64,000 bases of DNA from an uncultured Gammaproteobacteria bacterium (GTDB taxonomy: Bacteria > Patescibacteriota > Patescibacteriia > Magasanikbacterales > JBBTQS01). Position numbers and translations under genes: made by a program. A model generated the notes under the pieces. It was not told the origin of the DNA, searched no databases, and was given only the letters and a program-made list of their open reading frames with translations. The stretch lies in contig OZ246400.1 of the NCBI GenBank assembly GCA_965230935.1, positions 848,864 through 912,863 of the forward strand, written 5' to 3'. The stretch's first letter is position 1. Each line of letters opens with the position of its first letter. Positions 14,735 through 60,200 of this stretch are shown here, one piece after another.

Positions 14735-16009
14735 ATGGATAAGTTGAAAAAGATTTTTCAAATTAAAGATGTGCGACGAAGCATTCTCTATGTGATTGGG
14801 ATGCTTATTCTTTTTCGATTATTGGCAAATATTCCAGTTCCAGGTGTTGATGTGCAAAACCTCAACGCGTTCTTTAGTAGTAACCAGATTTTCGGTGTGC
14901 TCAATGTATTCTCTGGTGGGACGCTGGAGAGTTTTTCTGTAGTGATGCTTGGTGTTGGTCCGTATATCACCTCTTCAATTATTTTTCAACTTCTCGCGAT
15001 GGTTGTGCCACGACTTGAGGAGTTACAAAAAGAAGGAGAGTACGGGCAGAAAAAGATCAATCAGTACACTCGAATTGTCAGCATTCCGTTGGCTGCTATT
15101 CAAGCATATGGGTTTGTAACGTTGTTGCGACAACAAACCCATTTAAACATCTTTCCGAATCTCACCGGCTTTCAACTTTTGACTATTATTGTGACCGCGA
15201 CCGCCGGAACCACCTTTTTGATGTGGATGGGTGAGCTGATCTCAGAGAAGCGTGTTGGTAATGGTATTTCGTTGTTGATTTTTGCTGCTATTGTGGCGAG
15301 TTTTCCAACTTCAGTCCGAAACGTGATTGCCACATTTGATGCCACACAAATCCCAATGCTTATTGGTATCGCGATTTTGGCAATCGTAACCATTGTGGGA
15401 GTTATCTTTGTCACTGAAGGACAGCGTAATGTGCCGATCTCTTATGCTCGCGCTACCGGTGGTGGTCGGGTAAGTGGCGGGGTACAATCCTCGCTCCCTC
15501 TGCGAGTAAACATGGCCGGAGTCATCCCAATTATTTTTGCCATCTCATTGGTCCTCTTTCCACCACTTATTGCACAGTTTTTTGTACGAGCCAGAACGGA
15601 GTGGATCGCTGATTTTGCCAACTGGGTTATTCAGATTTTCCAAAATCAACTCTTTTACGGCATTGTCTACTTTGTTTTGGTATTTGTCTTCACCTATTTT
15701 TATACTTCAGTAGTAGTGCATCCGGATCGCATGTCAGAAAACCTCCAAAAACAAGGCGCATTTATTCCTGGGATTCGCCCAGGGACACAGACAGAAAAGT
15801 ACTTGCACAAAGTAATCACTCGCATTACATTTGTCGGTGCTACGTTTTTGGCTGCAATCGCGGTGTTACCGCTGGTTGTGCAATTCTTCACCAATACCAA
15901 CACATTGCTTATTGGTGGTATGAGCTTGCTGATCGTCGTGAGTGTTGCCATTGAATCATGGAAACAAATTGATGCGCAGATCACCATGCGTAGTTACGAT
16001 AATGTTTAG
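14735..16009 (+). CDS. secY: Preprotein translocase SecY
   Basis: 424 aa with 10 transmembrane segments and conserved SecY motifs. Confidence 0.95.
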   Translation: MDKLKKIFQIKDVRRSILYVIGMLILFRLLANIPVPGVDVQNLNAFFSSNQIFGVLNVFSGGTLESFSVVMLGVGPYITSSIIFQLLAMVVPRLEELQKEGEYGQKKINQYTRIVSIPLAAIQAYGFVTLLRQQTHLNIFPNLTGFQLLTIIVTATAGTTFLMWMGELISEKRVGNGISLLIFAAIVASFPTSVRNVIATFDATQIPMLIGIAILAIVTIVGVIFVTEGQRNVPISYARATGGGRVSGGVQSSLPLRVNMAGVIPIIFAISLVLFPPLIAQFFVRARTEWIADFANWVIQIFQNQLFYGIVYFVLVFVFTYFYTSVVVHPDRMSENLQKQGAFIPGIRPGTQTEKYLHKVITRITFVGATFLAAIAVLPLVVQFFTNTNTLLIGGMSLLIVVSVAIESWKQIDAQITMRSYDNV

Positions 16010-16011
16010 CT

Positions 16012-16383
16012 ATGGGTATTTTCTTTGATCAGCTGTTAGGTCGATCAACAAACAAACGAGGGAATCAAGAGGGGGATGGTGGCCACCAAGATTTTGAAAA
16101 TTCAGAAAGAGCATACGAAGCTATCGCGCGTATGATCAAGGCTCGATTTGGACCGGGAAAGCCCTTCAAAGCCCTGAATACTACTCGTGAGTGTGAGGCA
16201 TTAGCCAAAGAAGTCGCTGGGGGATTGCTCCGTAATGGTAATATTCATGAGATTCGCCGTAATGAAAAAAATCGTAAAGAATTTTTGAAAGACCTGGCGG
16301 AAAAGTACAACTTTACTCCACGTCATGCAGTGAAGTTTCGAGATGCAGTGCTCGCAGTATTTCCAAATCGTAAAGGAAAGTAA
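16012..16383 (+). CDS. Hypothetical 123-aa basic protein inserted between secY and adk
   Basis: The ORF is translationally coupled (2-bp gap after the secY stop). I recognise no domain. Confidence 0.45.
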   Translation: MGIFFDQLLGRSTNKRGNQEGDGGHQDFENSERAYEAIARMIKARFGPGKPFKALNTTRECEALAKEVAGGLLRNGNIHEIRRNEKNRKEFLKDLAEKYNFTPRHAVKFRDAVLAVFPNRKGK

Positions 16384-16386: not shown

Positions 16387-17013
16387 ATGCATCGTATTGT
16401 GTTGATTGGGCCGCAAGGGAGCGGCAAAGGGACGCAGGGAGAGTTACTCGCTGCGCATTTTTCTATTCCTACCATCTCTCTTGGCTCGTTGTATCGTGCC
16501 CATATTAAAGCGCAGAGTGAGACTGGAAAGAAGATCAAGTCGTATGTTGAGTCAGGAGCACTTGTTCCTGATGACATTGGTAAAGAAGTTATGCGAGAGC
16601 GCGTAGCGCAAGATGATGCAAAACCAGGATTTATTCTTGATGGATACCCGCGCAACGCCAAGCAATGCGCTGATCTTGAGGAGTTTGCTACAATAGATGC
16701 GGTGTTGGTAATCGGTATTTCTGATGAAGAAGCAGTAAAGCGAATTTCTGGCCGTCGACAATGTTCTCAAGGGCATATTTACCATGTGACGTTTAATCCT
16801 CCGCAGCAAGAGGGAGTTTGTGATCATGATGGTGAGCAATTGTACCAGCGCGACGACGACACCAAAGAAGCGGTACAAAAACGTTTGGCAATTTATCATG
16901 CTGAGACCGAACCAATTATTCAACATTATCGTGATCAAGGAATCGTCCACGACATTGATGGTGCGCAATCAGTTCAGGATGTTCAACAGTCTATTGTAGA
17001 TGTATTGCGATGA
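16387..17013 (+). CDS. adk: Adenylate kinase
   Basis: P-loop GPQGSGKGTQ; the LID region has a variant Cys/His/Cys/Asp tetrad. Confidence 0.95.
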   Translation: MHRIVLIGPQGSGKGTQGELLAAHFSIPTISLGSLYRAHIKAQSETGKKIKSYVESGALVPDDIGKEVMRERVAQDDAKPGFILDGYPRNAKQCADLEEFATIDAVLVIGISDEEAVKRISGRRQCSQGHIYHVTFNPPQQEGVCDHDGEQLYQRDDDTKEAVQKRLAIYHAETEPIIQHYRDQGIVHDIDGAQSVQDVQQSIVDVLR

Positions 17014-17057: not shown

Positions 17058-17444
17058 ATGAAAAAGGTCAAGACACAGACAAGTGTGGTGGCAGCAGTGG
17101 CAGTAGCATTGTTGGTAGTTTTTGGAGCTGGTTTAGCAGCGTATGCCGCAGGATTTTTGCCGCAAAGCACCTATGATCGTTTGCGTGAGCGTCGATTAGA
17201 ACAATATAGTCAAGAACATAAACAAAAACAGGAGTGGCTCAAGAAAAAGGCAGAAGCAAAGTATCAATTAGATCGTCGTCGTCGATTGTGGTACGGCCAA
17301 AAAGGTGGCGGTGGAAGCGCGGGATATGATACACCGGGGTACGACACTCCTGGTTACGAAACACCGGGGTACGAGACGCCAGGGTATGACACTCCAGGAT
17401 ATGATACACCCGGTTACGAAACACCGGGGTATCAGTTTCCCTAG
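17058..17444 (+). CDS. Small secreted or membrane-anchored protein with 8 C-terminal TPGY[DE] pentapeptide repeats
   Basis: N-terminal hydrophobic segment, then a coiled/basic stretch, then GYDTPGYDTPGYETPGYETPGYDTPGYDTPGYETPGYQFP. Confidence 0.6.
   Translation: MKKVKTQTSVVAAVAVALLVVFGAGLAAYAAGFLPQSTYDRLRERRLEQYSQEHKQKQEWLKKKAEAKYQLDRRRRLWYGQKGGGGSAGYDTPGYDTPGYETPGYETPGYDTPGYDTPGYETPGYQFP
17322..17441 (+). repeat. Imperfect 15-bp tandem DNA repeats encoding the TPGY[DE] pentapeptides
   Basis: Read directly from the sequence. Confidence 0.6.
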
Positions 17445-17453
17445 TCGCTGATT

Positions 17454-19454
17454 TTGAATTACATAGTTATGACGTGTAAAAAACACTGGGTATTTACCGG
17501 TGTTTTTTCATGGTGCGCGTTGGTGCTGATTTCAAGTATTCTATATATTGTTGCGGGAATCACCATACTCTCCACAATTGTGGTGCTGATTCTTGTGGCA
17601 TGGTTGGTGAGGATATGGTGTAAAAAAATCAGTGGCATACAGAATCGTTTTGTGGGTGAGCCAACGGTCATTCCTTGGATTCCATCATCAACACGTGCGT
17701 TATTTTTTACCGTACTTGTGATTGGACTTGATGGATTACTGGTCGCATTGTTGTATTTATCACGTGAGACCTTTGCATTACACTCCCCGTGGGAAATTGT
17801 CAGCTCATTTCATTTTATTGTGTTTGGTTTCACTACATTTGTACTTCTCCTTTTGAGTTTTAAAACACAAAGTCGATTGCTCTATAGTGCAATTGGTTTT
17901 CATAGTGCCTTGGTATTTGGTACTGCAGTATTTGCGTTTCCCTTTGGGTTTGGATTCGATCCACTGATCCATCAGGCTGCAGAACTTTATATTGCTGAAC
18001 ATGGAAAAATTTTACCTCTCCAGCCATTTTATATCGGTCAATACGCACTTGTTGGTGTAGTGCATGTGCTGAGCCGAGTATCTATCATCGGTATTGATCA
18101 GTGGTTATTACCAGTATTGGCAACTTTCTCAATCCCAGCGGTTGGCATGGTCAGCCTTCGGTATGTTTGGAAATTGCCCCACGCAGTCTCCCAAGCAAGT
18201 ATGGTGGCATTACCATTGCTGTTAGTTATGGGATTAACCTTTACCGTGCCGTTTAATCTTACGTTGGTCTATTTGGTGTGGTGGCTATTTTTGTTGCCGT
18301 TGATACAAGAGTCGGGTTGGCGGGGATCACTTTTGCTTTGGATGATTGTTCTAACAACACTCATTACCCACCCGCTCCTTGGAATGGGGATGCTATTTGC
18401 CACTGGGGGTGCTCAATTGCTTTATCGAATGTCTTCGCGCAAACGCAGTGTACGTTATTCTTGGCTACGTATGATAGCATTTGCGTTGCTTATTGGCATA
18501 GGTACCTTGGCCATGTTTGGTCTATATCGAGTTCTTCAAGGTGAATCGTTTGTACATACATGGATGTTTTGGGAGCACCTCGGTCGTTTTTGGTGGTTGT
18601 TTGGTTTTCCATATGAAGTACATCATGTCTCAGTTGGATATCAACTATTATATTATGCTGGATATGGGTTGTTGTATGGCACAATTATATTTGCGCTAGT
18701 GGCAATGGTGCGGTATACACGTGTGGTTTTATGGGTTCGTCAAACTATCTTAATGCTAGTGCTTGGCACGGTATTGAGTGCAATGTTGCTGAGCACTATG
18801 ATTACGATTCCAGGTGTGATTCATTATGAACAATTCGAATTTGTTGCCCGTTTGCGCAATGCCTTGCATGTCATGGTATTTCCAATGGTGGTTATCCCAA
18901 TCATGTATGCAATGTATAAACTCAAAGAAAAGGGCCAGGGCAGGAGAGTGGTAGCTAGTGTGCTATTGGCCGGAGTGATCACGCTCGGCTACTATTGGAT
19001 GTATCCGCAACACAATGATGTGCAATTTCGGAGTGGCTGGAATGTAGCAGCTCATGATATTGAGACGGTTCAAGTGATTGAACATCACGCACAAGAGCAT
19101 TCATATGCAGTACTCAGCGATCAGCTTATTGCTGCTGTTGGTCTGCGAGAGTTTGGATTTGAAAATACCGTTCCTACTATTGATCATCAACCAGCACACC
19201 GGTATGCAATTTCTCCAAAAGAGGTGTTGCATCCGTTTGCACAGCAAATGCTCTATGCGCGGCTCGCCCAAGACACCCTAGAGCAGGTATTTGCTGCAGT
19301 CGCAATCGATCGGTTGTATGTCGCAATCCATGAGTATTGGTTTCGATTGGATAATATTGCTCAAGAAGCTGTCTTACTTGGCGGCACACAGCTTAAGAGC
19401 CCATATGGAGTACAAGTATTCTATTGGGACATAAACCATGGACAAGAAAAGTAA
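17454..19454 (+). CDS. Large polytopic membrane protein (at least 12 TMS) with a roughly 200-aa C-terminal soluble domain; possibly a GT-C-type glycosyltransferase (speculative)
   Basis: 666 aa and very hydrophobic. It is inserted between adk and map. Confidence 0.55.
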   Translation: MNYIVMTCKKHWVFTGVFSWCALVLISSILYIVAGITILSTIVVLILVAWLVRIWCKKISGIQNRFVGEPTVIPWIPSSTRALFFTVLVIGLDGLLVALLYLSRETFALHSPWEIVSSFHFIVFGFTTFVLLLLSFKTQSRLLYSAIGFHSALVFGTAVFAFPFGFGFDPLIHQAAELYIAEHGKILPLQPFYIGQYALVGVVHVLSRVSIIGIDQWLLPVLATFSIPAVGMVSLRYVWKLPHAVSQASMVALPLLLVMGLTFTVPFNLTLVYLVWWLFLLPLIQESGWRGSLLLWMIVLTTLITHPLLGMGMLFATGGAQLLYRMSSRKRSVRYSWLRMIAFALLIGIGTLAMFGLYRVLQGESFVHTWMFWEHLGRFWWLFGFPYEVHHVSVGYQLLYYAGYGLLYGTIIFALVAMVRYTRVVLWVRQTILMLVLGTVLSAMLLSTMITIPGVIHYEQFEFVARLRNALHVMVFPMVVIPIMYAMYKLKEKGQGRRVVASVLLAGVITLGYYWMYPQHNDVQFRSGWNVAAHDIETVQVIEHHAQEHSYAVLSDQLIAAVGLREFGFENTVPTIDHQPAHRYAISPKEVLHPFAQQMLYARLAQDTLEQVFAAVAIDRLYVAIHEYWFRLDNIAQEAVLLGGTQLKSPYGVQVFYWDINHGQEK

Positions 19455-19474: not shown

Positions 19475-20272
19475 ATGGTTAAAGATCAAGAAGCAATTAC
19501 ACAGATTAAAGAGAATGGTGCATTGCTTGGCGCCATTGTTGATGAGTTGATCGCTCATGCTCAGCCGGGTATTACCACACAAGAACTCGATGCCTTGGCT
19601 GAGAAACGTATCAAAGAAGTTGGCGGCTTGCCGGCCTTTAAGGGGTACAAACCCACCTGGTCACATAATGGTTTTGCTGGGACAATTTGTGCATCGATCA
19701 ATCAAGAGGTGGTTCATGGTGTGCCATCTTCTCGAGTTCTTAAATCAGGTGATTTACTTGGTATTGATATTGGGATGCAATGGCCGCATACCAAAGCTAA
19801 AAAAGGATACTTCACTGATACCGCAGTTACGTTCGCGGTGGGCAGGGCTGATTCCACTGAGCATCAACAACTCCTTGATCGTACGCAACAGGCACTGCAT
19901 CGTGCAATAAAAGTGGCACGTCCTGGAAACAGTGTTGCTGATATTGGACGAGCGGTAGAGGAATTCATTACTCCATTTGGGTATGGAATTGTTACCTCAT
20001 TGGTTGGTCATGGTGTAGGGTATTCGATTCACGAAGAGCCTAACATCCCAAACGTGTATCGTGAGCAAAATGAGTCAATCAAGTTGGTTCCGGGAATGGT
20101 GGTGGCGCTCGAGCCAATGATCACACTTGGATCAGGAGATGTGGCTACTGCTGAAGATGGTTGGACAATTGAGACTATTGACCATAGTTATGCCGCTCAT
20201 TTTGAGCACACGATTGTGATTGAAGATCGTGGCGAACCACACATTGTAACCAGGCGTCCATCAGAAAAATAA
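19475..20272 (+). CDS. map: Methionine aminopeptidase type I
   Basis: Pita-bread fold metal ligands (D..D..H..E..E). The ATG at 19475 is preferred over the upstream alternative start. Confidence 0.93.
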   Translation: MVKDQEAITQIKENGALLGAIVDELIAHAQPGITTQELDALAEKRIKEVGGLPAFKGYKPTWSHNGFAGTICASINQEVVHGVPSSRVLKSGDLLGIDIGMQWPHTKAKKGYFTDTAVTFAVGRADSTEHQQLLDRTQQALHRAIKVARPGNSVADIGRAVEEFITPFGYGIVTSLVGHGVGYSIHEEPNIPNVYREQNESIKLVPGMVVALEPMITLGSGDVATAEDGWTIETIDHSYAAHFEHTIVIEDRGEPHIVTRRPSEK

Positions 20273-20273
20273 T

Positions 20274-20657
20274 ATGGCAGTTTTGGGTATTGATTATGGT
20301 GATAAGCATGTTGGACTTGCGTATCGCGCAGATGATGTTGATGTTGTAGTGCCGTTTGGTACACTTGAGCGTCATGATGACGCAACACTTGGTCAAGAGA
20401 TTTATCAATTGGTTGCTGCTGAAGATATCACTGCAGTTGTGGTTGGCATGCCGGTACATACGAGTGGTCGCGTGAGTGAACAAAGTCAAAAGACCACTCA
20501 GTTTATCGAGCAGCTCCAACAGATAATTACTATTCCGATCCACACGGTCTCTGAAGTGCTTACCAGTAAGGCGGCAGCAGACATGCCATATCCCCAAGCA
20601 AGTATTCATGAGAAGTCCGCACTGTTGATTTTACAAGAGTGGTTGGCCAATCAATAA
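20274..20657 (+). CDS. ruvX: Holliday-junction resolvase-like YqgF/RuvX (pre-16S rRNA nuclease)
   Basis: LGIDYGDKHVGLA N-terminus. Confidence 0.9.
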   Translation: MAVLGIDYGDKHVGLAYRADDVDVVVPFGTLERHDDATLGQEIYQLVAAEDITAVVVGMPVHTSGRVSEQSQKTTQFIEQLQQIITIPIHTVSEVLTSKAAADMPYPQASIHEKSALLILQEWLANQ

Positions 20658-20659
20658 GT

Positions 20660-21196
20660 ATGTCAACACTCATTACCACTCAGGCCATAATATTGCATGG
20701 TGATTATTTTCGCGAAAAAGACTTTCGCGTGAGTTTTCTAAGTCGTGATGTTGGTCTTCATGACGCCATTGCGATTGGTGCTAAAAAGTCAGTGAGTAAA
20801 CAGCGTGCGCGACTGGAGAGTGGCACAATCACCGAACTTGCGTTTGCCAAAGGAAGACGATTTGATCGCATTACTACTTCAGAACCGTTGGTGGTGCCAA
20901 ATCATATTCGTGTATCATTACCAAAGCTGACCGCGCTTCAATTTTTGAGCGCAAGTATTTTGAATACTACACGACGAGGCGAACCAATGCCGGAGTTGTA
21001 TCTCTTTTGCGCAAAAGCAATATTAGCACTAGAAAAACTTTCAGAAACTGACGTGCCCGGGTGGTGTGATTTGGTAGCAAAAAAAATTATTGAGCATGCT
21101 GGATTTGCACCAACTGCAAATGCACCATTGCGATCCCAAATGGAGTTCTTTTTTGAAAAACCAATGCGTGCTTGGGACGTGTTGCAGGTGGTATAA
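20660..21196 (+). CDS. recO: RecO-like recombination mediator (short form)
   Basis: N-terminal OB-fold pattern AIILHGDYFREKDFRVSFLSRDVGLHDAIAIGAKK resembles RecO. It is only about 179 aa and has no obvious zinc finger. Confidence 0.5.
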   Translation: MSTLITTQAIILHGDYFREKDFRVSFLSRDVGLHDAIAIGAKKSVSKQRARLESGTITELAFAKGRRFDRITTSEPLVVPNHIRVSLPKLTALQFLSASILNTTRRGEPMPELYLFCAKAILALEKLSETDVPGWCDLVAKKIIEHAGFAPTANAPLRSQMEFFFEKPMRAWDVLQVV

Positions 21197-21258
21197 AAAA
21201 GTAGAGAGCCCGACAGCAATGTTTACACATTCACAAACTTTTGGTAGACTGATCTCGT

Positions 21259-22554
21259 ATGAAATCAACAATATTTATCGCTAAGATTAGCGAATATTTA
21301 GACCAGGACGTCACACTTTCTGGATGGATTAGTAATGTCCGATCGTCTGGGAAAATTATGTTTTTGCAACTGCGGGATGGTTCAGGGTTTATTCAAGCAA
21401 TCTTGAGTCAGCCTGATGTTGCCCCAGAGGTATGGGAGAAAGCGCAAACCATTACGCAAGAAAGTGCCGTAACACTCACCGGGACAGTCAGCAAGCACCC
21501 TAAAAAAGAAGCATACGAACTTCAGGTTTCTGATGTGCAAATCTTACAACTTGCTCACGAATATCCTATTGGTAACAAAGAGCACGGCGTCGATTTTTTG
21601 ATGGAAAATCGCCATTTGTGGTTACGTTCCAAAAAGCAGTGGGCAGTGCAGCGGGTTCGTAATACGGTAATCAATGCCATTTATGAATTTTTCAATCAAC
21701 AAGGATTCATTAAAATCGATTCACCGATTTTAACGCCAAATGCATGTGAGGGAACCACAACACTGTTTGAAGTTCCATACTTTGATCAGGGGAGTGCGTA
21801 TCTTTCCCAAAGTGGACAGTTATATCTTGAAGCGGCAATCATGGCACATAGTCGAGTGTTTGACTTTGGACCAGTGTTTCGTGCTGAGAAAAGCAAGACG
21901 CGTCGACATCTCACTGAGTTTTGGATGATGGATGCAGAGATGGCTTTTTGTGATTATGTACAGAACATGGATATTCAGGAGCAGTTGTTTAAACATATTG
22001 CAGCGCGCGTATTGCAAGACAATCAACAAGAGCTTGAAATTCTTGAGCGTGACCAATCCATTTTGCAGGCCATTGTAGAGCAGCCGTTTAAACGCATGGC
22101 TCACCGCGAAGCAGTTGAATATTTACAATCAAAAGGTTCGGATATTACGTATGATGATGATTTGGGAGGAGATGACGAGACCACACTTACTGCTGAGTTT
22201 GGTGTCCCGGTGTTTGTACATACGTGGCCAGCAAAGATCAAATCGTTTTATATGAAGCGAGCAGAGGATGAAACCTATGTTCTTGGAAGTGATTTGATTG
22301 CTACGGATGGGTACGGGGAGATTAGTGGAGGATCAGAGCGTGAAGAGAATTACGACGTATTATTAGGAAGAATTCACGAAGAAGGATTAGATCAAAAGGA
22401 TTTTGAATGGTACCTGGATCTGCGTAAGTATGGTTCAGTTCCGCATAGTGGTTTTGGTCTCGGGCTTGAGCGTACCGTCGCGTGGATGTGTGGGGTCAAG
22501 CATGTTCGTGAGACCATTCCATTTCCACGGACTATTATGCGGTTGCGTCCGTAA
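21259..22554 (+). CDS. asnS: Asparaginyl-tRNA synthetase
   Basis: Class II motifs; FRAEKSKTRRHLTEFWMMDAEMAF is AsnRS-type. Confidence 0.88.
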   Translation: MKSTIFIAKISEYLDQDVTLSGWISNVRSSGKIMFLQLRDGSGFIQAILSQPDVAPEVWEKAQTITQESAVTLTGTVSKHPKKEAYELQVSDVQILQLAHEYPIGNKEHGVDFLMENRHLWLRSKKQWAVQRVRNTVINAIYEFFNQQGFIKIDSPILTPNACEGTTTLFEVPYFDQGSAYLSQSGQLYLEAAIMAHSRVFDFGPVFRAEKSKTRRHLTEFWMMDAEMAFCDYVQNMDIQEQLFKHIAARVLQDNQQELEILERDQSILQAIVEQPFKRMAHREAVEYLQSKGSDITYDDDLGGDDETTLTAEFGVPVFVHTWPAKIKSFYMKRAEDETYVLGSDLIATDGYGEISGGSEREENYDVLLGRIHEEGLDQKDFEWYLDLRKYGSVPHSGFGLGLERTVAWMCGVKHVRETIPFPRTIMRLRP

Positions 22555-33567: not shown

Positions 33568-35032
33568 TCTTGTTGAGTAGCCATGACGCCAAATTTTGTT
33601 TGCTGTGTTGTTTGATACAACTGCGTGCATGGTTGGTCTTCGCAAATTTGATCCAGTCAGGACTTGGTCCCTTTCTTTTTTTATCAGTGGTGATGTCAAC
33701 CAAGTCCCCACTCTTGAGCGGTTGGCTCAGTGGTGTCATCGTGTCATTTACTCGCGCTCCAACGCAGGTATTACCAACATCGGTATGGATGGCATAGGCA
33801 AAATCGATTGGTGTCGCATTTTCCGGTAAATCAATTACGTCTCCTTTAGGTGTAAAGACAAAGATGCGATTTTGAAATACGTCGATCTTGAGATGCTCCA
33901 GATCTTGGAGTCGTTGCATAATATCTTTTTGTACTTCAGCTAGTTCTTTAATCCATTGCAATCGCTTTGAAGGAATTCGCGAACCTTGTTCATCATAATG
34001 CCAATGGGATGCAATACCGTACTCAGCATCATCATGCATTTCTTGTGTTCGGATTTGAAATTCTACAATCTCGCCATTGGTACAAAACACGGTTGTGTGA
34101 AGTGACTGATAGCCATTTGGCTTTGGCTGCGCAATGTAGTCTTTGATCCGTCCTTTGAGGGGGCGCCACACTTTATGAATAATTCCTAGAACGGCATAAC
34201 AGTCTGCGACGCTGGGAACGATAATTCGTAGAGCTACAAGATCGTAAATCTTATCAATATTACGATCATACTTCATCAGTTTTTTATACAGACTGTACAA
34301 TCGTTTTGTTCGCCCATGAATATCAAGTGTTGGAATAGACTCTTTTTCGAGCTCTTTTTTGATCTGCCGTTGAATTTGACGCAGATATTTTTCTTTCTCA
34401 TCAAATTGTTCGCTGATCAGGTTTTTTACCCATTTATATTCTTTCGGATATACATATTTAAATGATTCGTCCTCAAGACGTCCTTTCATATCACCCATCC
34501 CAAGACGGTTGGCAATCGGTGCATAGATCTCCAGGCTTTCTAGTGCAATGCGGTATTGCTTTTTTGGGGGGAGTGAGTCAAGTGTTTGAAGGTTATGTAA
34601 TCGGTCGGCAAATTTTACAATCATCACGCGCACATCATTGGCAACGGCCACAAACATTTTACGAAGGTTTTCAATGTACCGTTCTACACCACGATATTTG
34701 AGCTTTCCTAATTTGGTGATTCCTGAAACAATGGTCTCAATGTCTTTTCCAAAGTTCTTTTCAATATCCTCAAGCGTTACATTGGTATCTTCTGGAACAT
34801 CATGCAGCAATGCCGCCAAGATAATAGATTCATGCATTTCCATCTCAGCCAGCAATGTTGCCGCGGCGAGCGGATGGATAATATATGGTTCTCCGGATTT
34901 TCGACGTTGTCCTTTATGAGCATTATTCGCAAAGTCATAGCAGAGTTTGACCAATTCTAAATCCGCCCCTTTGTTTTTGGCGGAAATAGTCTTCAATAGT
35001 CGATCAATGGTATAAGCCTTTGGTTTTGCCAT
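33548..35032 (-). CDS. rel: Short RelA/SpoT homolog (HD hydrolase, synthetase and TGS domains; no C-terminal regulatory domains)
   Basis: HD motif HDVPEDT and a synthetase domain. It ends shortly after the TGS domain, at 494 aa. Confidence 0.9.
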   Translation of the reverse strand: MAKPKAYTIDRLLKTISAKNKGADLELVKLCYDFANNAHKGQRRKSGEPYIIHPLAAATLLAEMEMHESIILAALLHDVPEDTNVTLEDIEKNFGKDIETIVSGITKLGKLKYRGVERYIENLRKMFVAVANDVRVMIVKFADRLHNLQTLDSLPPKKQYRIALESLEIYAPIANRLGMGDMKGRLEDESFKYVYPKEYKWVKNLISEQFDEKEKYLRQIQRQIKKELEKESIPTLDIHGRTKRLYSLYKKLMKYDRNIDKIYDLVALRIIVPSVADCYAVLGIIHKVWRPLKGRIKDYIAQPKPNGYQSLHTTVFCTNGEIVEFQIRTQEMHDDAEYGIASHWHYDEQGSRIPSKRLQWIKELAEVQKDIMQRLQDLEHLKIDVFQNRIFVFTPKGDVIDLPENATPIDFAYAIHTDVGNTCVGARVNDTMTPLSQPLKSGDLVDITTDKKRKGPSPDWIKFAKTNHARSCIKQHSKQNLASWLLNKITTEEN

Positions 35033-35063
35033 ATGGATATCGCTATATTTAGCGTACTCTTGC

Positions 35064-35092
35064 TTGACAATTTTGTCTATATGTGCTATAGT
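35064..35092 (+). promoter_or_regulatory. Near-consensus sigma70-type promoter TTGACA-N17-TGcTATAGT
   Basis: Exact -35 hexamer, 17-bp spacer and an extended -10 element, read directly from the sequence. Confidence 0.55.
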
Positions 35093-35098
35093 CTGCGC

Positions 35099-35160
35099 AG
35101 GTGATGTTTAGGTATAACCTAAGCCAAGAGGGAAACCGCCAGACTGTTGGCGGTTTTTCT
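35099..35160 (+). ncRNA. Candidate small RNA of about 60 nt (promoter to terminator unit, no ORF)
   Basis: It starts about 7 nt after the -10 element. It contains the ttaggt-ata-acctaa hairpin and ends at a strong terminator. Confidence 0.35.
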
Positions 35161-35165
35161 TTTGT
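35134..35165 (+). terminator. Intrinsic terminator (8-bp stem aaccgcca/tggcggtt followed by TTTTTCTTTTGTTTT)
   Basis: Read directly from the sequence. Confidence 0.7.
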
Positions 35166-35281
35166 TTTAGGCAATTTGCTATTGACCAGAGTATGCAGGA
35201 ATGATACCCTATGCTCGTGGTTCGAGAGGGCCTGAGCATCACCATTGGCACGAGGTTACCTCATTCGAGCCACACAAAGTA

Positions 35282-35309
35282 TCCCAGCATTGCTGGGATT
35301 TTTTGTTTG
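35282..35309 (+). terminator. Intrinsic terminator (cccagca/tgctggg followed by TTTTTTGTTTG)
   Basis: Read directly from the sequence. It follows a 10-bp G.U-containing stem at about 35212-35271 that is more stable in the plus sense. Confidence 0.55.
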
Positions 35310-35310
35310 T

Positions 35311-35364
35311 AAATCAAAACGCCCCCTCCTGCGTTGTGCGCGAAATGCGCTGCAGAAGGGGACG
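35311..35364 (-). terminator. Intrinsic terminator of the high-GC lipoprotein gene (13-bp GC-rich stem followed by TTTTGATTT on the minus strand)
   Basis: Stem cgtccccttctgc/gcaggagggggcg containing two G.U pairs in the minus sense. Confidence 0.5.
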
Positions 35365-35421
35365 CCTCAAGTTGTTGGTGAGTGTGTGGATCAGTTGCGC
35401 TGGTGAGGCGCTACCGAAGCA

Positions 35422-36381
35422 TCACTCGCCAGGACAGGTGACGACCTGGTTGAACGATTCGCTCCCGCACGAGTAGTCGTCGCAAACCGTCAGGGTGATG
35501 GTGAACTCGCCGCACTGCACGAACTCGACCGTGGCGTAGGTCTCGGTGTCGTACTTGATCAGCGGGGACTGCACGTCGGCCTCGACCGCCGTGACCTCCC
35601 ACTGGTAGCTGTCCACCATGCCGAAGTGGTCGGTGCTGGAGCCGGACTTGGTCCCGTCGAGGCTGATGTGCTTGAGCGTGTCGATGGCGATCGACTGCGG
35701 CTCGTTGATCAGGTCGATGGGGTTCCAGCTCTGGCTGTACGCCATGGCCTTGATCCGGGCGGTGGGCGCCGGCGCCTGGGTGGCGTAGCCACCGAGGCTG
35801 AGCTCGTAGGTGTGGTTCTCGATCTCAGCCGCGTGCGCCGTGGCCTCGATCGTGAGCACGCCGTAGCGGTACTCAGTGAAATCCACGTCCAGCTCGAGCT
35901 CCTCGTGCGTCTTGGGCTCGAACACGGTCGGGATGGCGCTCTTGTGGCCGGCCTCGATGGTCTGGAACCGGTTCTTGGTCGCCACATCGAAGTCCGCCTC
36001 GCCGTCGCCGTACACCACCACGTCGATCACCTCGACGTCCACGCTGTACTCGCACCCGTTGTGCACCTGGATCATGCGCTGAGTCGCGCCGCCCAGGTAC
36101 GTATCGGGGAACTCGTACGTCGCAGGGATGGTGATGCACTTGGACAGCGCCGCCGCCTCCACGTCCTGCTCGTTGTCGCTCGTCTCGTCGGACCCAGCCA
36201 GCTCGGCCGGCGGCCCCTCGGGCTCACCGTGCTCGCCGAAGCCGCAGTCGCCCTTGTAGATCTCGGCGACCTCCCAGCCGCGCTCGATCGTGGGGTCGGA
36301 CTCGGCCATGCAGCCGATCTGCGGGGTGGCAGCGATGAAAAGGACGAAGATGAGCGACGCGTTGTTGATAACCCGCTTCAT
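35422..36381 (-). CDS. High-GC secreted lipoprotein of unknown function (319 aa, Asp/Glu-rich, three Cys pairs)
   Basis: Signal peptide with a lipobox (FIAATPQIGC) and a GGAGGC RBS. About 65% GC, in sharp contrast to its flanks. The antisense ORF at 35626-36552 is compositional noise. Confidence 0.7.
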   Translation of the reverse strand: MKRVINNASLIFVLFIAATPQIGCMAESDPTIERGWEVAEIYKGDCGFGEHGEPEGPPAELAGSDETSDNEQDVEAAALSKCITIPATYEFPDTYLGGATQRMIQVHNGCEYSVDVEVIDVVVYGDGEADFDVATKNRFQTIEAGHKSAIPTVFEPKTHEELELDVDFTEYRYGVLTIEATAHAAEIENHTYELSLGGYATQAPAPTARIKAMAYSQSWNPIDLINEPQSIAIDTLKHISLDGTKSGSSTDHFGMVDSYQWEVTAVEADVQSPLIKYDTETYATVEFVQCGEFTITLTVCDDYSCGSESFNQVVTCPGE

Positions 36382-36554
36382 GAGAATGCCTCCGTTGCTT
36401 ACTGTCTCTTACTGTTGCGCTCAAACGCCGGCACCTGCCGACTCGTACTTGGGGTAAACCCGTTCCGTAGGGAATACATTTACTGTTTTTGGAAAATGCC
36501 CTCCTTACGAAGCGTTTTCTTAAACAACGTAAAATCAACTCGAAATAACTGAGA

Positions 36555-44980: not shown

Positions 44981-45006
44981 CTTTTGTTCTTTTCATGTGC
45001 TTTTTG

Positions 45007-45097
45007 CGCGAGTTGTGTAGAGGAGGGGTCAGTAGATTGGCTCAAATATTCAAAGGAGGCCTGCAATCTACGACAGCAGTTCTCTGCACAACTCGCG
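45007..45097 (+). ncRNA. 91-nt structured leader element: 16-bp outer stem (one G.U) enclosing an 8-bp inner stem, with the SD-like AAGGAGG exposed in the apical region
   Basis: cgcgagttgtgtagag pairs with ctctgcacaactcgcg; gtagattg pairs with caatctac. Read directly from the sequence. Confidence 0.4.
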
Positions 45098-45144
45098 TAA
45101 GAAGTCTGGTGCTTGGTCTGAAACCCAAACGTTGGAGGAAGAGG

Positions 45145-45303
45145 ATGCCTTTGAACAACCCATTGATGGTCACCTGCGGGAACCGTCGCTGTCGCGCGCA
45201 CGTGGCGCTGCTGTACATGCGCGTGCCGTGTACCTCGGTCCGATTGTATCGCTCATACCTATGGGAGATACTGAGGATGTTATTTACAAATCGTGTAGAA
45301 TAA
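45145..45303 (+). CDS. Possible 52-aa Cys-rich small ORF in the leader
   Basis: Good RBS (GGAGGAAGAGG then ATG). Translation is MPLNNPLMVTCGNRRCRAH...; there is no other support. Confidence 0.2.
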   Translation: MPLNNPLMVTCGNRRCRAHVALLYMRVPCTSVRLYRSYLWEILRMLFTNRVE

Positions 45304-45481
45304 TCAGGTATACCTGTACGAATCAGCTGTCTATCTCTGAGGTGCAACGTCGCATCTTGAGCTCTAAGCAATTGAGCGTGCAGGTATGCACACATCGATG
45401 ACCTTGGAGGGTCCGATGATTTTTTCCGTTTTGACCACTTTGGCCACTATCAGCAACCCCAACGACTCCGAGGAGGGAGCC

Positions 45482-47170
45482 ATGAGCGACGACAAGAAGA
45501 GCAAGAAGAAGTCGCCGCCGGCCCCGGCGGAGGCGAACGAGGGCGATGCGAAGCGCAAGTACGAGCCGGGTGACGGGCCCTACGAGCGCGTTCACGCGGA
45601 CGTCATCGGCTCGATGGAGGCGCAGTACTGCTGCAATCCTTTCGACCAGGCCGACGCGTGTGACTTCACCGGCGGTCCGGACGAGCTGACGTTGCCGAGC
45701 TTCAAGGCGCTCAACAGCAGCATCAGCCGGGTGCACGGGCTCAAGCGCGGGTTCTTCCCGGGTGACGAGGCCATCTACGCCCGTTGCCCGCAACACGCGC
45801 ACGAGGTCCGGTACGGCAACCGGACGATCCGCGAGACCTTCAAGTACACGGCCGATCGTTGGGCCGGTAAGGGTCGGACCCCGAGCACCTGGATGGCGCA
45901 GCCGCTGCCGCACCCCGAGGCCTTCAATAAGCACCCGTACTGCACTCCGTGCAGCGGGAGCTGCGGCGGCCTGTGGCTCGAGACCAACCTGTACGCCCCG
46001 CAGCCCGAGGCGCTCGTGGAGCAGCTGGAGGACGTCGAGTCCACCGGCGCGCTCACGCGGGAGCACTTCGGCGCGCATCTGCTGTGCAAGCGGTGCGTGG
46101 ACGCTGACGCGGTCGAGCAGGGGACCCTCGTCGAGTTCGCCACGATCGTGGCGGCCTTGGGTTGGGAGCCGCGGGAGTACGTGCCCGAGGCGCTCGATCT
46201 CGAGGGGTTCGAGGGGACGCAGGTCACGGTTGAGCACCCGCAGCTCGAGGTCTCGCAGAAGCTCCAGGCCGTGGTTCGTTCGACTCACACGTCGTTCGGG
46301 GTGTTCGCCCGCATCGTGGATGACGGACGTGACGCCCTGTTGCGTTGGGAGGACGTCAACGCGGACTACAACGTGGGTGACGTGATCGACATCTGGATCG
46401 CGCGGCTGCACTGCAAGACGGGTGAGGACGGCGAGTCGGATCGCCTCTTCATCTGGGCGGCGGACACCAAGCCCGTGCTCTTGGCGGACGTCAAGTCCGG
46501 CCAGGAGTTCGATGGCGAGGTGGCCTCCCACGCGCCCTTCGGCATGTTCGTGCGCATCGGTCCGGCTCTGCCGGCTGGTGTCGTGCACAAGAGCGTGCTG
46601 AGCGGCCGTTCGCGCGACGACTTCCCGGTGAACACGTTCGTCCGGGTCATGGTCAGCGACGTGGACCACAAGCGTTCTCGACTCAACCTCGTGTTGGTCG
46701 AAGACGTGGAGGGAAGCAGAGCGGTCCAGGACTGGAAGGCGCAGGCGCCGGGAGCGGAGGACGTGGTCTCGGTCGACCAGGAGGTGGGGAAAGGTAAGAC
46801 CCCCACCAAGGTCGGCCTGACCATGGTTCCGCCCAAGTCCGAGCAGCCCAAGTCCAAGAAGTCCCGGTTCGTCCCCAGGCGCCGCACGACGTACGTGGTG
46901 GGTCCCAAGCCCGCCGCTGCGCAGCAGCGTGAGGAGGTCGAGGCGCAGCTCGCCGATGCCGCCAAGGTGTTCGGTGAGGCCGAGCACATCCAGAAGACCG
47001 GTACCTACGGGGCCGGATCCAAGGACAGCATCGGTCGCTCGCTCGAGGGGCGCAAGGCCGGTAAGGCCAAGCGCTCGAAAGCCGAGGAGATCAAGGATCG
47101 GACGCTCAAGGTGTTCGGCGACCTCTTCAACGTCCGCCAGGGCAAGGGCAAGAAGGGCAAGGGCAACTGA
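45482..47170 (+). CDS. High-GC 562-aa protein: N-terminal Cys/His-rich region, three S1/OB-like RNA-binding domains and a Lys/Arg-rich tail
   Basis: GAGGAGGG RBS 6 nt upstream of the ATG. One canonical S1 motif (GQEFDGEVASHAPFGMFVRIGPALPAGVVHKSVLS) and two degenerate ones. About 66% GC with GC3-rich codons. The antisense 622-aa ORF is noise. Confidence 0.7.
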   Translation: MSDDKKSKKKSPPAPAEANEGDAKRKYEPGDGPYERVHADVIGSMEAQYCCNPFDQADACDFTGGPDELTLPSFKALNSSISRVHGLKRGFFPGDEAIYARCPQHAHEVRYGNRTIRETFKYTADRWAGKGRTPSTWMAQPLPHPEAFNKHPYCTPCSGSCGGLWLETNLYAPQPEALVEQLEDVESTGALTREHFGAHLLCKRCVDADAVEQGTLVEFATIVAALGWEPREYVPEALDLEGFEGTQVTVEHPQLEVSQKLQAVVRSTHTSFGVFARIVDDGRDALLRWEDVNADYNVGDVIDIWIARLHCKTGEDGESDRLFIWAADTKPVLLADVKSGQEFDGEVASHAPFGMFVRIGPALPAGVVHKSVLSGRSRDDFPVNTFVRVMVSDVDHKRSRLNLVLVEDVEGSRAVQDWKAQAPGAEDVVSVDQEVGKGKTPTKVGLTMVPPKSEQPKSKKSRFVPRRRTTYVVGPKPAAAQQREEVEAQLADAAKVFGEAEHIQKTGTYGAGSKDSIGRSLEGRKAGKAKRSKAEEIKDRTLKVFGDLFNVRQGKGKKGKGN

Positions 47171-47258
47171 GACCTGGTAGAGGCCAGGCACTACACGACA
47201 ACAACAACTGGTTTTGGGGCGGCGCGGACAACGGAGTAACTTCCCGCGTTTGCGTCGC

Positions 47259-47308
47259 CCCTGTCCAATAGTGCAGCTCAGTATACTGAGAGATACTATT
47301 GGGCAGGG
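47259..47308 (+). promoter_or_regulatory. 50-bp near-perfect palindrome (14-bp arms flanking the self-complementary CTCAGTATACTGAG), immediately upstream of the RBS of the next gene
   Basis: Read directly from the sequence. Operator-like. Confidence 0.35.
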
Positions 47309-47326
47309 AAGACAAGGAGGGCCATC

Positions 47327-48001
47327 TTGAAGAGTTTTTCCTCTTTTCGTCTGGTTCGGCGAAGAGGGTTTCGATGGTCAGTGCTGCTTGTCATGCTGGT
47401 CATCTTCATCTTGATTTTTGTCCCGTTGGAGGTGGCACCTATGACGACTACGCCGGAACATGTGGTGAGCTGTGATGCGCCCAGCAAGGTCGTCGTCAGT
47501 TTCACTCAGGAGCAGATGCGCCAACAGGTGAGCCGGGTGTTTCCGATCAATTTGCCTGAGGTGGTGCGCATGGTGGACGTGGTGCTGCACGATCCATCGA
47601 TCACCTTGAACCAGATCAGCGCCAGCACAGTCACACTGGAGCTCGGCGCAACGTTGGTGGTGAGCACGCCATTGCCTGGTGTTCCGGAAGGGCGGTATCG
47701 TGCAACGATCAGCGCCACCGGATCGTTGGTGTACGGCAATGTGCACAAGGCCGTGTACATCAGTGAGTTTGCCATCACGCAGCTCACGCTCAGCGGACGT
47801 CTTGCGCATGTTCAGGACTCGACGCGCTTGCGCGCGTATGTCCAGGAGGTGTTGCAACAGCAGGTGCTGAGTAATGTGCCGCTGTACCGGACAAGTGAGG
47901 CTCAACTCGCCACGATCGCACCAAATGCGGCTGTGGTACAGGCTGCACTCACCCCCAGTGGGGAGGTGCACATTGGTCTGAGCTGGGATGAGCACCGCTG
48001 A
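47327..48001 (+). CDS. DUF1439 (YceB-like) family protein with signal peptide; TTG start
   Basis: AAGGAGGG RBS 7 nt upstream of the TTG. Basic-hydrophobic N-terminus. Resemblance to the DUF1439 pattern. About 58-60% GC. Confidence 0.55.
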   Translation: MKSFSSFRLVRRRGFRWSVLLVMLVIFILIFVPLEVAPMTTTPEHVVSCDAPSKVVVSFTQEQMRQQVSRVFPINLPEVVRMVDVVLHDPSITLNQISASTVTLELGATLVVSTPLPGVPEGRYRATISATGSLVYGNVHKAVYISEFAITQLTLSGRLAHVQDSTRLRAYVQEVLQQQVLSNVPLYRTSEAQLATIAPNAAVVQAALTPSGEVHIGLSWDEHR

Positions 48002-59376: not shown

Positions 59377-60200
59377 TTGTTGCAGTGCTGTTGGTGGTCG
59401 TTGTGGGTGGAGCGTGGTATTGGCAACGGTTTTTGCGTTATGCCACGATTCATTTTTTAGATGTTGGCCAAGGTGATGCGACATTAATTCATGTGCCACC
59501 AAACACACAAATGTTGATTGATTGTGGTCGTGATGCGCAAGGACTTGCTGCGCTCGCACGCACGCAACCATATTTTGATCGTACGATCGAGTATCTTGTG
59601 CTTACCCATGCTGACGCTGATCATTATGCCGGGTGTATTGATATTCTTACGCGCTATACTGTTGAACAATTTGTATTTACCGGTTTGGGCAAACGGGATC
59701 ATGCATTATGGAATGCATTTATGAGTCATGTTCAACAAGGAGGGAGTGAGATTGTTCAGCTTGTAGATACGCATACGTGGTATTTGGATCATGTAACAAT
59801 TACCAGTCTTTTCCCAGATCAAAACATTGTTACCCATCCGCTTCGTTTTGGTTCACAGGTAAGTCAGGGAAACAACGCATCAGTGGTGTTGCGTATTGAT
59901 GCGTCACACACATCGTATTTACTCATGGGTGATGCCGAAAAACAACAGGAACAATATCTCGTGCAACAATATGGTAGCGCACTTCAGTCTGATGTGCTCA
60001 AAGTTGGCCATCATGGAAGTGCCACGTCTTCAACTGAAGAATTTTTACAACACGTCGGTGCTGGCACTGGTGTTATTTCTTCAGGAAAAGAGAATCGGTA
60101 TGGGCATCCTGCTGCGCGAGTTGTTGCAAGACTCAAACGCCATGACATACAGGTTCGTCGTACTGACCTAGAGGGAGATGTTCAATTTATGCTATACTAG
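59340..60200 (+). CDS. comEC: ComEC C-terminal metallo-beta-lactamase domain as a separate ORF (overlaps the previous ORF by 37 nt in another frame)
   Basis: HxHxDH (LTHADADH) and GHHGS motifs with an N-terminal TM segment. Confidence 0.75.
   Translation: MGILASKKVTNLIVAVLLVVVVGGAWYWQRFLRYATIHFLDVGQGDATLIHVPPNTQMLIDCGRDAQGLAALARTQPYFDRTIEYLVLTHADADHYAGCIDILTRYTVEQFVFTGLGKRDHALWNAFMSHVQQGGSEIVQLVDTHTWYLDHVTITSLFPDQNIVTHPLRFGSQVSQGNNASVVLRIDASHTSYLLMGDAEKQQEQYLVQQYGSALQSDVLKVGHHGSATSSTEEFLQHVGAGTGVISSGKENRYGHPAARVVARLKRHDIQVRRTDLEGDVQFMLY

Follow-up and report, generated by a model that had tools for sequence, protein, structure and literature searches.

Two genes lie between adk and map on the forward strand of the window, by which we mean the whole 64-kb stretch of DNA that was analyzed. 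The features of the locus are as follows.

16387 to 17013, + strand: adk, the upstream flank (Pfam ADK, E 1e-41).
17058 to 17444, + strand: gene for a PGY-repeat protein of 128 aa, predicted to be exported and anchored (ORF, identical public gene call, AF2 secondary structure, ortholog in L004).
17316 to 17435, + strand: repeat tract, SAGYD followed by seven units of TPGY plus D, E or Q, with a period of 15 nt; the proposed acceptor module (TRF, codon divergence, P-G-Y core).
17454 to 19454, + strand: gene for a membrane protein with a GT-C fold, 666 aa (661 aa from ATG 17469), a member of an undescribed family in the Patescibacteria.
17937 to 18083, + strand: largest outer loop of the membrane protein (residues 162-210), the candidate catalytic loop (invariant alignment columns, model helices, positive-inside rule).
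19002 to 19454, + strand: C-terminal alpha/beta domain, soluble and predicted to be located outside the cytoplasm (residues 517-666).
19475 to 20272, + strand: map, encoding methionine aminopeptidase, the downstream flank (Pfam Peptidase_M24).

Both open reading frames had been proposed in a first-pass annotation and both are real, as public gene calls on contigs of the same organism agree on 128 aa for the small protein, 661 aa for the large protein and 265 aa for the product of map. The large gene may start at TTG 17454 (666 aa) or at ATG 17469 (661 aa), the latter being the public call. The start of map is most likely ATG 19475 rather than TTG 19424, and thus there is no overlap between map and the large gene, the stop codon of which is 20 nt from the map start. 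A scan for promoters and terminators gave nothing above the shuffle expectation and no sign of separate transcription for either of the genes between adk and map. The genes downstream of map are ruvX and recO rather than those of the alpha operon, and an unannotated ORF of 123 aa (16012-16383) is located between secY and adk. The position between adk and map had been thought to be meaningful, but this placement is common only to the window and its closest relative, locus L004.

The 128-aa protein begins with a Lys/Thr-rich N-terminus and an Ala/Val/Gly-rich hydrophobic helix that ends in A-Y-A/A (residues 1-31), which we predict to be a signal-anchor or a cleavable signal. In a single-sequence AF2 model, a TM helix (residues 7-31) is followed by a long charged helix (residues 36-82) and a disordered tail; in the sequence, a GGGG hinge lies between the charged helix and the repeats. 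The tail had been described as eight units of TPGY followed by D or E; a tail of eight GY units is indeed present at residues 87-126 (SAGYD, TPGYD, TPGYE, TPGYE, TPGYD, TPGYD, TPGYE, TPGYQ), but only seven of these are exact TPGY units, the first being degenerate and the last ending in Q. A TRF analysis of the tract yielded a period of 15, with 7.5 copies and 74% DNA matches. Within the TPGY core, several codons are used for each residue (T aca/act/acg, P ccg/cct/cca/ccc, G ggg/ggt/gga, Y tac/tat) and all nucleotide differences are synonymous, which indicates that the peptide is under purifying selection at the codon level and that the array is not the product of recent slippage. The ortholog in L004 shows 50% identity across 125 aligned residues (E 3e-26). 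As a sequence query against 5.8 billion proteins, the protein matched only itself. The small proteins that accompany the large one, here called partners, represent a repeat class and not a single detectable orthologous family, and a profile built from ten of the small partners was needed to retrieve more of them. The “PGY repeat” of the literature, which refers to eukaryotic Caspr/neurexin IV, is unrelated.

The large protein contains about 15 TM helices, as counted from AF2 secondary structure and hydropathy, as against the “at least 12” of the first-pass annotation, which had also recognized the soluble domain at the C-terminus. Among 36 homologs, the loops proposed to face inward had a K+R density of 0.226, as compared to 0.060 for the outer loops. 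By the positive-inside rule, this contrast assigns all of the conserved motifs, together with the C-terminal domain, to the outer side. The predicted topology is hence N-in/C-out, with all family-invariant residues at the external face and next to the 150-aa C-terminal domain, namely the SPW loop, D169 and H173 of GFGFDPxIH, Y193/Y197, P266, H306-P307 and E459/Q460/R466. The outer loop of 49 residues that harbors D169, the sole invariant acidic residue of the family alignment, follows TM helix 5 rather than TM helix 1. It contains the motif GFGFD169PxIH173QAAE, which opens an amphipathic juxtamembrane helix, as well as the invariant residues G184, Y193, G195 and Y197, and the helices in the model span residues 168-183 (the amphipathic helix, with D169 at its start) and 194-207. 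A conserved “RTD” after the third TM helix was also considered as the source of a catalytic Asp and was discarded, since the Asp is not conserved and is a T in the window protein.

The architecture of the polytopic membrane domain is that of the GT-C enzymes, and the GT-C fold of the large protein is well supported in comparisons of the structural model, in which AftA was the best match. In structural alignments with the mycobacterial GT-C arabinosyl-/mannosyltransferases (AftA/GT85, AftB, AftD, EmbA-C and PimE), identities were 8-13% and sequence similarity was undetectable. In contrast to these enzymes, the family has motifs of its own (SPW, GFGFDPxIHQAAE, THPLLG and YEQxEFxxRL) and extra N-terminal helices. 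Membership in the PMT, ArnT, AglB or YfhO families, which had been suggested, did not hold at the sequence level. No Pfam match was obtained for the large protein or for any of the 36 homologs, including to PMT, PMT_2, MIR and STT3, nor did the large protein match Wzy_C in Pfam or any model in NCBIfam. Searches of the PDB sequences with the family, by phmmer and by profile, gave no match at E <= 10, and there was no sequence-model match to the named GT-C families (GT39 PMT, GT83 ArnT/PMT_2, GT66 STT3, GT85 AftA, GT87 and YfhO). Furthermore, the large protein lacks the WWDYG motif and the partners lack N-x-S/T sequons, which sets the pair apart from AglB/PglB/STT3 (GT66).

This lack of sequence similarity to characterized glycosyltransferases in Pfam, NCBIfam and the PDB might indicate that the GT-C-like fold is present without glycosyltransferase activity, as in a PIG-U/GAB1-like scaffold, a transporter or another enzyme that uses the D/H/H/R constellation. 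We find this quite improbable. The strongest structural matches are all to active GT-C enzymes, and the family is embedded in gene clusters for glycosylation. Moreover, in the main outer loop the invariant Asp is predicted to open a juxtamembrane helix, and the invariant His, Arg and Tyr are predicted to be located on the outer face, as the binding of a lipid-phosphate donor would need.

The first-pass annotation had considered a module specific to this lineage, but members of the enzyme family were identified in 404 species-representative genomes of the Patescibacteria, corresponding to about 1,400 clusters at 50% identity. The family seems to be restricted to the Patescibacteria, is previously undescribed and is without annotation in any of the libraries searched. 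A literature search found no paper that links the Patescibacteria to GT-C enzymes, oligosaccharyltransferases or lipoglycans. The family splits into two clades, one of which contains the window protein (clade A). The genes of the sister clade (clade B) have neighbors that code for GT4, GT2, CDP-alcohol phosphatidyltransferase, HIT and NUDIX proteins and a paralogous GT-C protein, which suggests that the enzyme family works in the synthesis of glycoconjugates. Among these, CDP-alcohol phosphatidyltransferase, GT4, HIT and NUDIX make up the same set of genes as the PIM operon of mycobacteria (PMC3229680). A clade B neighbor of 759 aa showed a profile relation to the enzyme family, and a neighboring membrane protein of 565 aa showed none. 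No homologs of the AAA+, GT4, GT2, CDP-OH transferase, HIT and NUDIX neighbors from related loci were identified in the 64-kb window.

The window's clade is instead linked to a protein gene, and not to genes for arabinogalactan or LAM. A (P)GY-repeat ORF was adjacent on the same strand at 23 of the 81 family loci, as compared to 4 of 2,271 background ORFs (p 8e-18), and all positive loci belong to the window's clade. Between the two clades, an adjacent gene for an exported (P)GY-repeat protein was found at 22/30 loci of the window's clade and 0/49 loci of the sister clade (p 3e-13). The linkage was also recovered in the reverse direction. The profile of small anchor-plus-PGY proteins retrieved 36 proteins, from which seven were picked only by how long their contigs were; all seven are encoded directly downstream of a gene for a protein of 607-695 aa, and six of the upstream genes were confirmed as members of the family (E <= 4e-164). 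The co-occurrence of the two genes, which the first-pass annotation had proposed to check across genomes, is thus borne out. The partner gene precedes the enzyme gene in loci of the Magasanikbacteria-like type and follows it in those of the Uhrbacteria-like type, indicating that the linkage survives rearrangement, and the stop codon of one gene frequently overlaps the start of the next, by 4-20 nt. Much of this linkage may have been inherited as synteny and need not stem from independent events.

That two unrelated lineage-specific genes were inserted into the ribosomal super-operon, and are adjacent without any functional meaning, is strongly disfavored and hardly credible. It would be in line with the finding that the position next to adk and map is not conserved beyond the closest relative. 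Yet the pairing is kept in many species, whichever gene comes first and across different neighborhoods, and it reappears when the search starts from the small protein.

We also considered the possibility that the enzyme accompanies every PGY repeat, and rejected it. A search of metagenome contigs with a DNA pattern for PGYxxPGYxxPGY returned 120 loci, mostly coding for low-complexity proteins of the QPGYG type with high GC content, and none of these contained a member of the family. PGY repeats as such are thus not diagnostic.

A comparison of 23 partners showed that the repeats have a conserved core of P (-2, 0.84), G (-1, 0.85) and Y. The partners have the repeat type in common rather than overall homology, and some carry unrelated C-terminal domains, a pattern that fits a recognized acceptor module. 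Their N-termini are either classic signal peptides (e.g., PSAHA/L in L001) or a basic N-terminus followed by an Ala-rich hydrophobic helix ending in AxA, which predicts that they are exported. In the small partners the anchor is conserved, with a TKTK-like segment and an Ala-rich TM helix.

The first-pass annotation had suggested a pair consisting of a substrate and a GT-C-type O-glycosyltransferase, in which a PMT-like enzyme modifies the Thr of the Thr-Pro motifs. The GT-C fold and the pairing of the genes uphold one part of this proposal; the acceptor site and the assignment to a named family are not supported. GT-C enzymes of the PMT type classically use a Thr flanked by Pro as acceptor (as for MtPMT, PMC12331936), and nearly all repeat units in the window are of the TPGY type. 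However, Thr is present at position -3 in a mean of only 34% of the units over the 23 partners, the repeats of L046 contain neither Ser nor Thr, and those of L003 and L034 contain a single Thr. The Ser/Thr acceptors of PMT (GT39) are thus not conserved in the PGY repeats, and with no match to PMT, PMT_2 or MIR in the enzyme we regard this version of the pair as unlikely.

Our preferred hypothesis, to which we give an even chance, is that the two genes encode a co-transcribed pair in which the PGY repeats are glycosylated by the GT-C enzyme on the exterior of the cell, with Tyr as a possible site. Like other GT-C enzymes, the large protein would use a sugar donor linked to polyprenyl phosphate in the outer leaflet, a reaction that we infer from the fold, and pass the sugar to an extracellular acceptor. 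For the window's clade, this acceptor would most likely be the co-encoded small protein, an identity that we infer from gene linkage only. This protein would be exported by means of its N-terminal signal or signal-anchor and display a disordered Pro-Gly-Tyr tract. Tyr is the most likely site of modification because its hydroxyl is the only nucleophile that is conserved across all partners, and Thr, where it occurs, as in the window, comes second. The result would be a stalk or surface coat that is glycosylated and tethered to the membrane.

Another explanation, which we consider possible although clearly less probable, is that the acceptor of the GT-C enzyme is not a protein but, for instance, a lipoglycan, a teichoic acid-like polymer or peptidoglycan, and that the PGY protein is a stoichiometric accessory subunit or scaffold, which may for example bind glycans by Tyr-sugar stacking, set the polymer length or tether the enzyme. 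The PIM operon-like clusters of the sister clade point to lipid-anchored glycan acceptors, which implies that the ancestral acceptor may not have been a protein, and AftA acts on a polysaccharide. The overlap of start and stop codons suggests equimolar synthesis, the anchor of the small partners is conserved, and such tight linkage, with frequent translational coupling, would be expected of a stoichiometric subunit no less than of a substrate. PGY-type repeats are also common elsewhere without the enzyme, which counts against the pair that we prefer. On the other hand, the partners diverge widely beyond the repeats, and those with cleavable signal peptides would have no TM helix left for docking to the enzyme. 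The only feature common to all of them is a disordered repeat tract, which would be unusual for a structural subunit.

The closest precedent for adjoining genes of a GT-C enzyme and its substrate is TfpW and PilA of the group IV pili in Pseudomonas aeruginosa, and the conserved adjacency is also seen here. The gene for TfpW, an enzyme of the GT-C type, adjoins that for its substrate PilA, and TfpW has a periplasmic loop 1, a large periplasmic C-terminal domain and a lipid-linked sugar as donor (bioRxiv 10.1101/2020.04.19.049825). The substrate of TfpW is a folded pilin that receives D-Araf oligomers on Ser/Thr, whereas here it would be a disordered PGY tract in which Tyr provides the conserved hydroxyl. 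The only well-established attachment of bacterial surface glycans to Tyr in an exported envelope protein is the O-glycosylation of S-layer proteins in Paenibacillus alvei and Thermoanaerobacter (reviewed in PMC2943079). In those proteins the acceptors are single Tyr residues in folded proteins rather than PGY repeats. To our knowledge, the S-layer transferase WsfB is of the Wzy_C/O-antigen-ligase type and not a GT-C enzyme, unlike the large protein studied here. We know of no precedent for the O-glycosylation of Tyr by a GT-C enzyme.

Three-component extracytoplasmic systems combine a GT2 polyprenyl-P-sugar synthase, a GtrA-type flippase and a GT-C enzyme (PMC8035078, PMC11127046). By analogy, a lipid-linked monosaccharide might be made inside the cell, flipped and used outside by the GT-C enzyme. 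However, the targets of such systems are teichoic acids or polysaccharides rather than proteins. The pair described here has adk and map as its neighbors, no polyprenyl-phosphate sugar synthase or flippase was identified close to it, and the 64-kb window contains no homolog of the GT2 or GT4 neighbors of related loci.

A more speculative hypothesis, which we regard as rather unlikely in its full extent, is that a single GT-C family confined to the Patescibacteria has diverged such that one branch elongates a PIM/lipomannan-like lipoglycan while the other glycosylates Tyr in co-encoded, membrane-tethered PGY-repeat proteins. If true, this would be the first O-glycosylation of Tyr catalyzed by a GT-C enzyme, and it would yield a surface glycopolymer primed by a protein, namely a proteoglycan that replaces lipoteichoic acid or lipoglycan in lipid-poor episymbionts.

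The Patescibacteria represent a large share of bacterial diversity and live attached to other cells, and their envelopes are almost uncharacterized. Our findings suggest that the exported PGY protein and the GT-C enzyme probably build a sugar-coated surface protein in an ultra-small bacterium of the CPR/Patescibacteria. The two clades offer testable handles on how the surface is built in this group, one for a glycosylated module of Tyr repeats and the other for a lipoglycan pathway like that of the mycobacterial PIMs, and the partner repeats are a simple sequence signature by which to search for substrates. Should Tyr prove to be the acceptor, the pair would represent a new linkage chemistry for GT-C enzymes, and whether it is or not, the family merits an entry of its own in Pfam and CAZy.

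The two genes lie between adk and map on the forward strand of the window, in the following order:

14735-16009, + strand: secY
16012-16383, + strand: unannotated 123-aa open reading frame (ORF) between secY and adk, also called in public records of the same organism
16387-17013, + strand: adk
17058-17444, + strand: 128-aa ORF, the small repeat protein
17454-19454, + strand: 666-aa ORF, the large membrane protein (public call: ATG at 17469, 661 aa)
from ATG 19475, + strand: map (public call, 265 aa), followed by ruvX and recO
20274-20657: RuvX, downstream of map
20639-21196: RecO N-terminal-domain protein, downstream of RuvX

Public gene calls on contigs of the same organism, one of which is 931 kb long, give an identical gene list, and the closest relative, locus L004, has the same synteny (secY, small ORF, adk, partner, enzyme, map). 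Co-transcription of the pair within the ribosomal super-operon is plausible, since the gaps in the series from adk through the 128-aa and 666-aa genes to map are short (44, 9-24 and 20 nt) and a consensus scan revealed no excess of promoters or terminators. The 123-aa ORF, which had no Pfam or NCBIfam match, has a 116-aa counterpart at the same position in L004 (1951-2301) and is the second insertion into the spc operon that is specific to this lineage. The usual continuation after map, infA-rpmJ-rpsM-rpsK-rpoA, is absent here (19475-22554), and RecO is followed by a 431-aa ORF (region to 22554) that presumably resembles a class II aminoacyl-tRNA synthetase.

Neither the large protein nor 36 of its homologues matched Pfam, NCBIfam or PDB sequences, and by sequence it falls outside every described family. 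A word-seeded search recovered 37 homologues, and an exhaustive profile search 1,388 clusters (50% identity), 1,004 of them with E <= 1e-30 and all of these full length. The relatives come from 404 GTDB species-representative genomes; the 80 genomes retrieved represent Magasanik-, Uhr-, Falkow- and Buchananbacteria, other Patescibacteria and evidently mislabelled MAGs. The family alignment contains the invariant residues P112, W113, G165, D169, H173, G184, Y193, G195, Y197, P266, H306, P307 and R466, and the signature motifs SPW, GFGFDPxIHQAAE, FTVP, THPLLG and YEQxEFxxRL. An AlphaFold2 model built with this alignment was confident (pLDDT 91.6, pTM 0.93), and Foldseek ranked AftA, AglB and ArnT at the top, with AftA as the closest structural relative. 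On the model, the assignment as a GT-C enzyme is solid at the level of the fold, and the chemistry is what we infer.

Model helices, hydropathy and the positive-inside rule, applied over the family alignment, predict about 15 transmembrane (TM) helices with the N-terminus inside and the C-terminus outside. Across the seven loops proposed to be inner, Lys and Arg reach a density of 0.226, against 0.060 for the outer loops. All conserved motifs and a 150-aa C-terminal domain are predicted to lie on the outer face. The largest outer loop of the model has two helices, one of them short; the other is amphipathic and juxtamembrane and is capped by D169, the sole invariant acidic residue of the family. 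In layout this loop recalls EL1, the catalytic loop of GT-C enzymes, and it may be the equivalent. A non-catalytic role for the protein is unlikely.

The location between adk and map is not conserved, and other homologues are found near ATP synthase, groEL or M17 peptidase genes. What recurs is a neighbouring gene for an exported protein with Pro-Gly-Tyr-type (PGY) repeats, such as PAYRP (L001), PGYQPTKPGY (L002), GYVPGY (L003) and PGYTPPGYDTPGY (L011). Among 81 species-level loci, a same-strand adjacent PGY-type ORF was present in 23. Of the 2,271 other ORFs just 4 qualified (p 8e-18), among them a genuine partner located 1.3 kb away. A neighbour-joining tree divides the family into clade A, which holds the window, and clade B. 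The first-pass annotation had proposed that the two genes form a pair, and they do co-occur elsewhere: partners were identified at 22 of 30 clade A loci versus 0 of 49 clade B loci (p 3e-13), and several of the clade A loci without a partner are contig ends or contain similarly anchored ORFs. Conversely, a profile made from ten small partners retrieved 36 proteins of 66-128 aa, and all 7 of 7 sampled solely for lying on long contigs were directly downstream of a 607-695-aa gene; 6 of 6 such genes with DNA at hand were family members (E <= 4e-164). Magasanikbacteria-like loci have the partner upstream of the enzyme, Uhrbacteria-like loci have it downstream, and in many cases the start or stop of the partner gene lies within the enzyme gene; the linkage has thus survived rearrangement. 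Elsewhere, PGY repeats are a common feature of organisms, mostly high-GC ones, that lack the family enzyme; the sole PGY ORF in the 64-kb window is the one adjoining the enzyme gene. The linkage is solid, and chance adjacency is unlikely.

The 128-aa protein begins with MKKVKTQT and a hydrophobic helix of 25 residues, rich in Ala/Val/Gly, that ends in AYA|AG, followed by a long charged helix, GGGG and a tail of SAGYD and seven TPGY[D/E/Q] repeats. The repeat DNA has a period of 15 and 7.5 copies with just 74% identity (TRF), and every nucleotide difference among the 28 TPGY codons is synonymous, so the peptide repeat is maintained by selection. Over its first 125 residues the protein shares 50% identity with its L004 orthologue (E 3e-26), which has in addition a C-terminal domain of about 200 aa. 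In the longer partners (L004 2987-3967; L012 2567-3823) the C-terminal domain has no Pfam match and contains motifs such as YYYxxGxRYxF and (T/N)xxxYAV(T/S)xGGxL(R/H)(K/R)(I/V); here the PGY tract would be a linker from the membrane anchor to a globular surface domain.

Since the N-termini of the partners are either classic signal peptides or a basic Thr/Lys-rich stretch with an Ala-rich hydrophobic helix, often ending AxA, the repeats should be outside the cell, within reach of the GT-C active site. Many partners share an N-terminus rich in Thr and Lys(Arg) ("TKTKT"), after which comes a hydrophobic Ala/Gly/Val-rich helix that ends in AAAxA(F). Some neighbouring ORFs without strong PGY repeats have this N-terminus as well, and it may serve as a dedicated signal for sorting or recognition:

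TKTKT-type N-termini: L011 5732-5995; L014 2773-3111; L016 5677-5904; L022 5908-6240; L031 5461-5862; L048 3853-4065 and 5765-6700; L056 4762-5451

The first-pass annotation proposed the Thr-Pro motifs as the glycosylation sites of a PMT-like enzyme, which may apply to the window's own protein but is not supported by conservation. Averaged over 23 partners, with Tyr at position 0 fixed by construction, the frequencies are 0.84 for P(-2) and 0.85 for G(-1) but just 0.34 for T(-3); L046 has neither Ser nor Thr in its repeat regions, and L003 and L034 have a single Thr there. Tyr is the sole hydroxyl common to all partners.

In clade B, the family gene is accompanied by a conserved cluster (L015, L017, L024, L051, L060, L063, L076 and others; for example L063 1-7398). 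Divergent from it are genes for NUDIX, HIT, a paralogous GT-C protein (700-770 aa; hhalign probability 98.2% against the family profile) and a CDP-alcohol phosphatidyltransferase, and it is followed by one or two convergent GT4 genes, sometimes with GT2. The mycobacterial early-PIM operon has the same set of HIT, PgsA, PimA-type GT4 and NUDIX (PMC3229680), and this analogy supports a role of the entire family in glycoconjugates. For clade B it suggests the elongation of a glycan anchored to lipid, and it is a hint that Patescibacteria possess a PI-anchored lipoglycan pathway. The acceptor in clade A could likewise be a lipoglycan or wall polymer, with the PGY protein in the part of an accessory subunit. 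This is the chief alternative to a pair of enzyme and acceptor, and the less likely of the two: it is favoured by translational coupling and by the conserved anchor, and it is disfavoured by how diverse the partners are and by the cleavable signals that some of them carry.

Where clade A is Uhrbacteria-like, a third neighbour recurs, at 12 of 81 loci and in three reverse look-ups. It is an AAA+ ATPase of 330-377 aa with an N-terminal TM helix and a core like the first domain (D1) of ClpA/B (Pfam AAA and AAA_lid_9), and its gene either immediately precedes the GT-C gene or diverges from it:

AAA+ ATPase: L003 3947-4951 (-); L011 2490-3623; L016 2436-3569; L019 2967-3962; L206 555-1547 (-); L209 252-1385; L210 402-1385 (-)

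These loci thus hold a three-gene module of AAA+, GT-C and PGY proteins; the 64-kb window contains no homologue of the ATPase. In 32 of 81 loci (L020, L033, L037, L068, L078 and others; for example L033 1884-3581, - strand), the gene that lies upstream of the family gene and diverges from it encodes a conserved membrane protein of about 565 aa, which matched nothing in Pfam and is unrelated to the GT-C family by profile; a conserved ORF of about 194 aa often goes with it.

Elsewhere in the window, we observed two islands, at 45-48 kb (G+C 0.58-0.67) and at 35-36 kb (0.57), that stand far above the G+C of the background, about 0.45. They may stem from horizontal transfer or from a chimeric assembly; the second contains a 319-aa ORF with a weak PKD-like match. 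The region 58057-61705 may be a neighbourhood for DNA uptake and surface adhesion.

45000-48000 and 35000-36500: high-G+C islands
45323-47191, - strand: 622-aa ORF without Pfam match, in the 45-48 kb island
47327-48001: DUF1439 protein, in the same island
58057-59376: ComEC/Competence-family membrane protein
60218-61705: 495-aa secreted protein with nine bacterial TSP3 (calcium-binding) repeats

PMT enzymes offer a precedent for the modification of disordered, Pro-rich exported segments, and Tyr glycosylation in S-layers is, as far as is known, performed by a transferase of another type than GT-C. Tyr-linked glycans are known from S-layer systems (PMC2943079), and the nearest functional precedent for adjacent genes for a GT-C enzyme and its protein substrate is TfpW-PilA (bioRxiv 10.1101/2020.04.19.049825). 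Among the papers searched, none links Patescibacteria with such enzymes. The GT-C fold was known already, and it is the sequence family of the enzyme that is new here. The reading we favor, to which we give about an even chance, is that the pair consists of an enzyme and its acceptor: the transferase would take a sugar off a polyprenyl-phosphate carrier and add it onto the exported PGY tract, and the product would be a glycosylated, membrane-tethered stalk.
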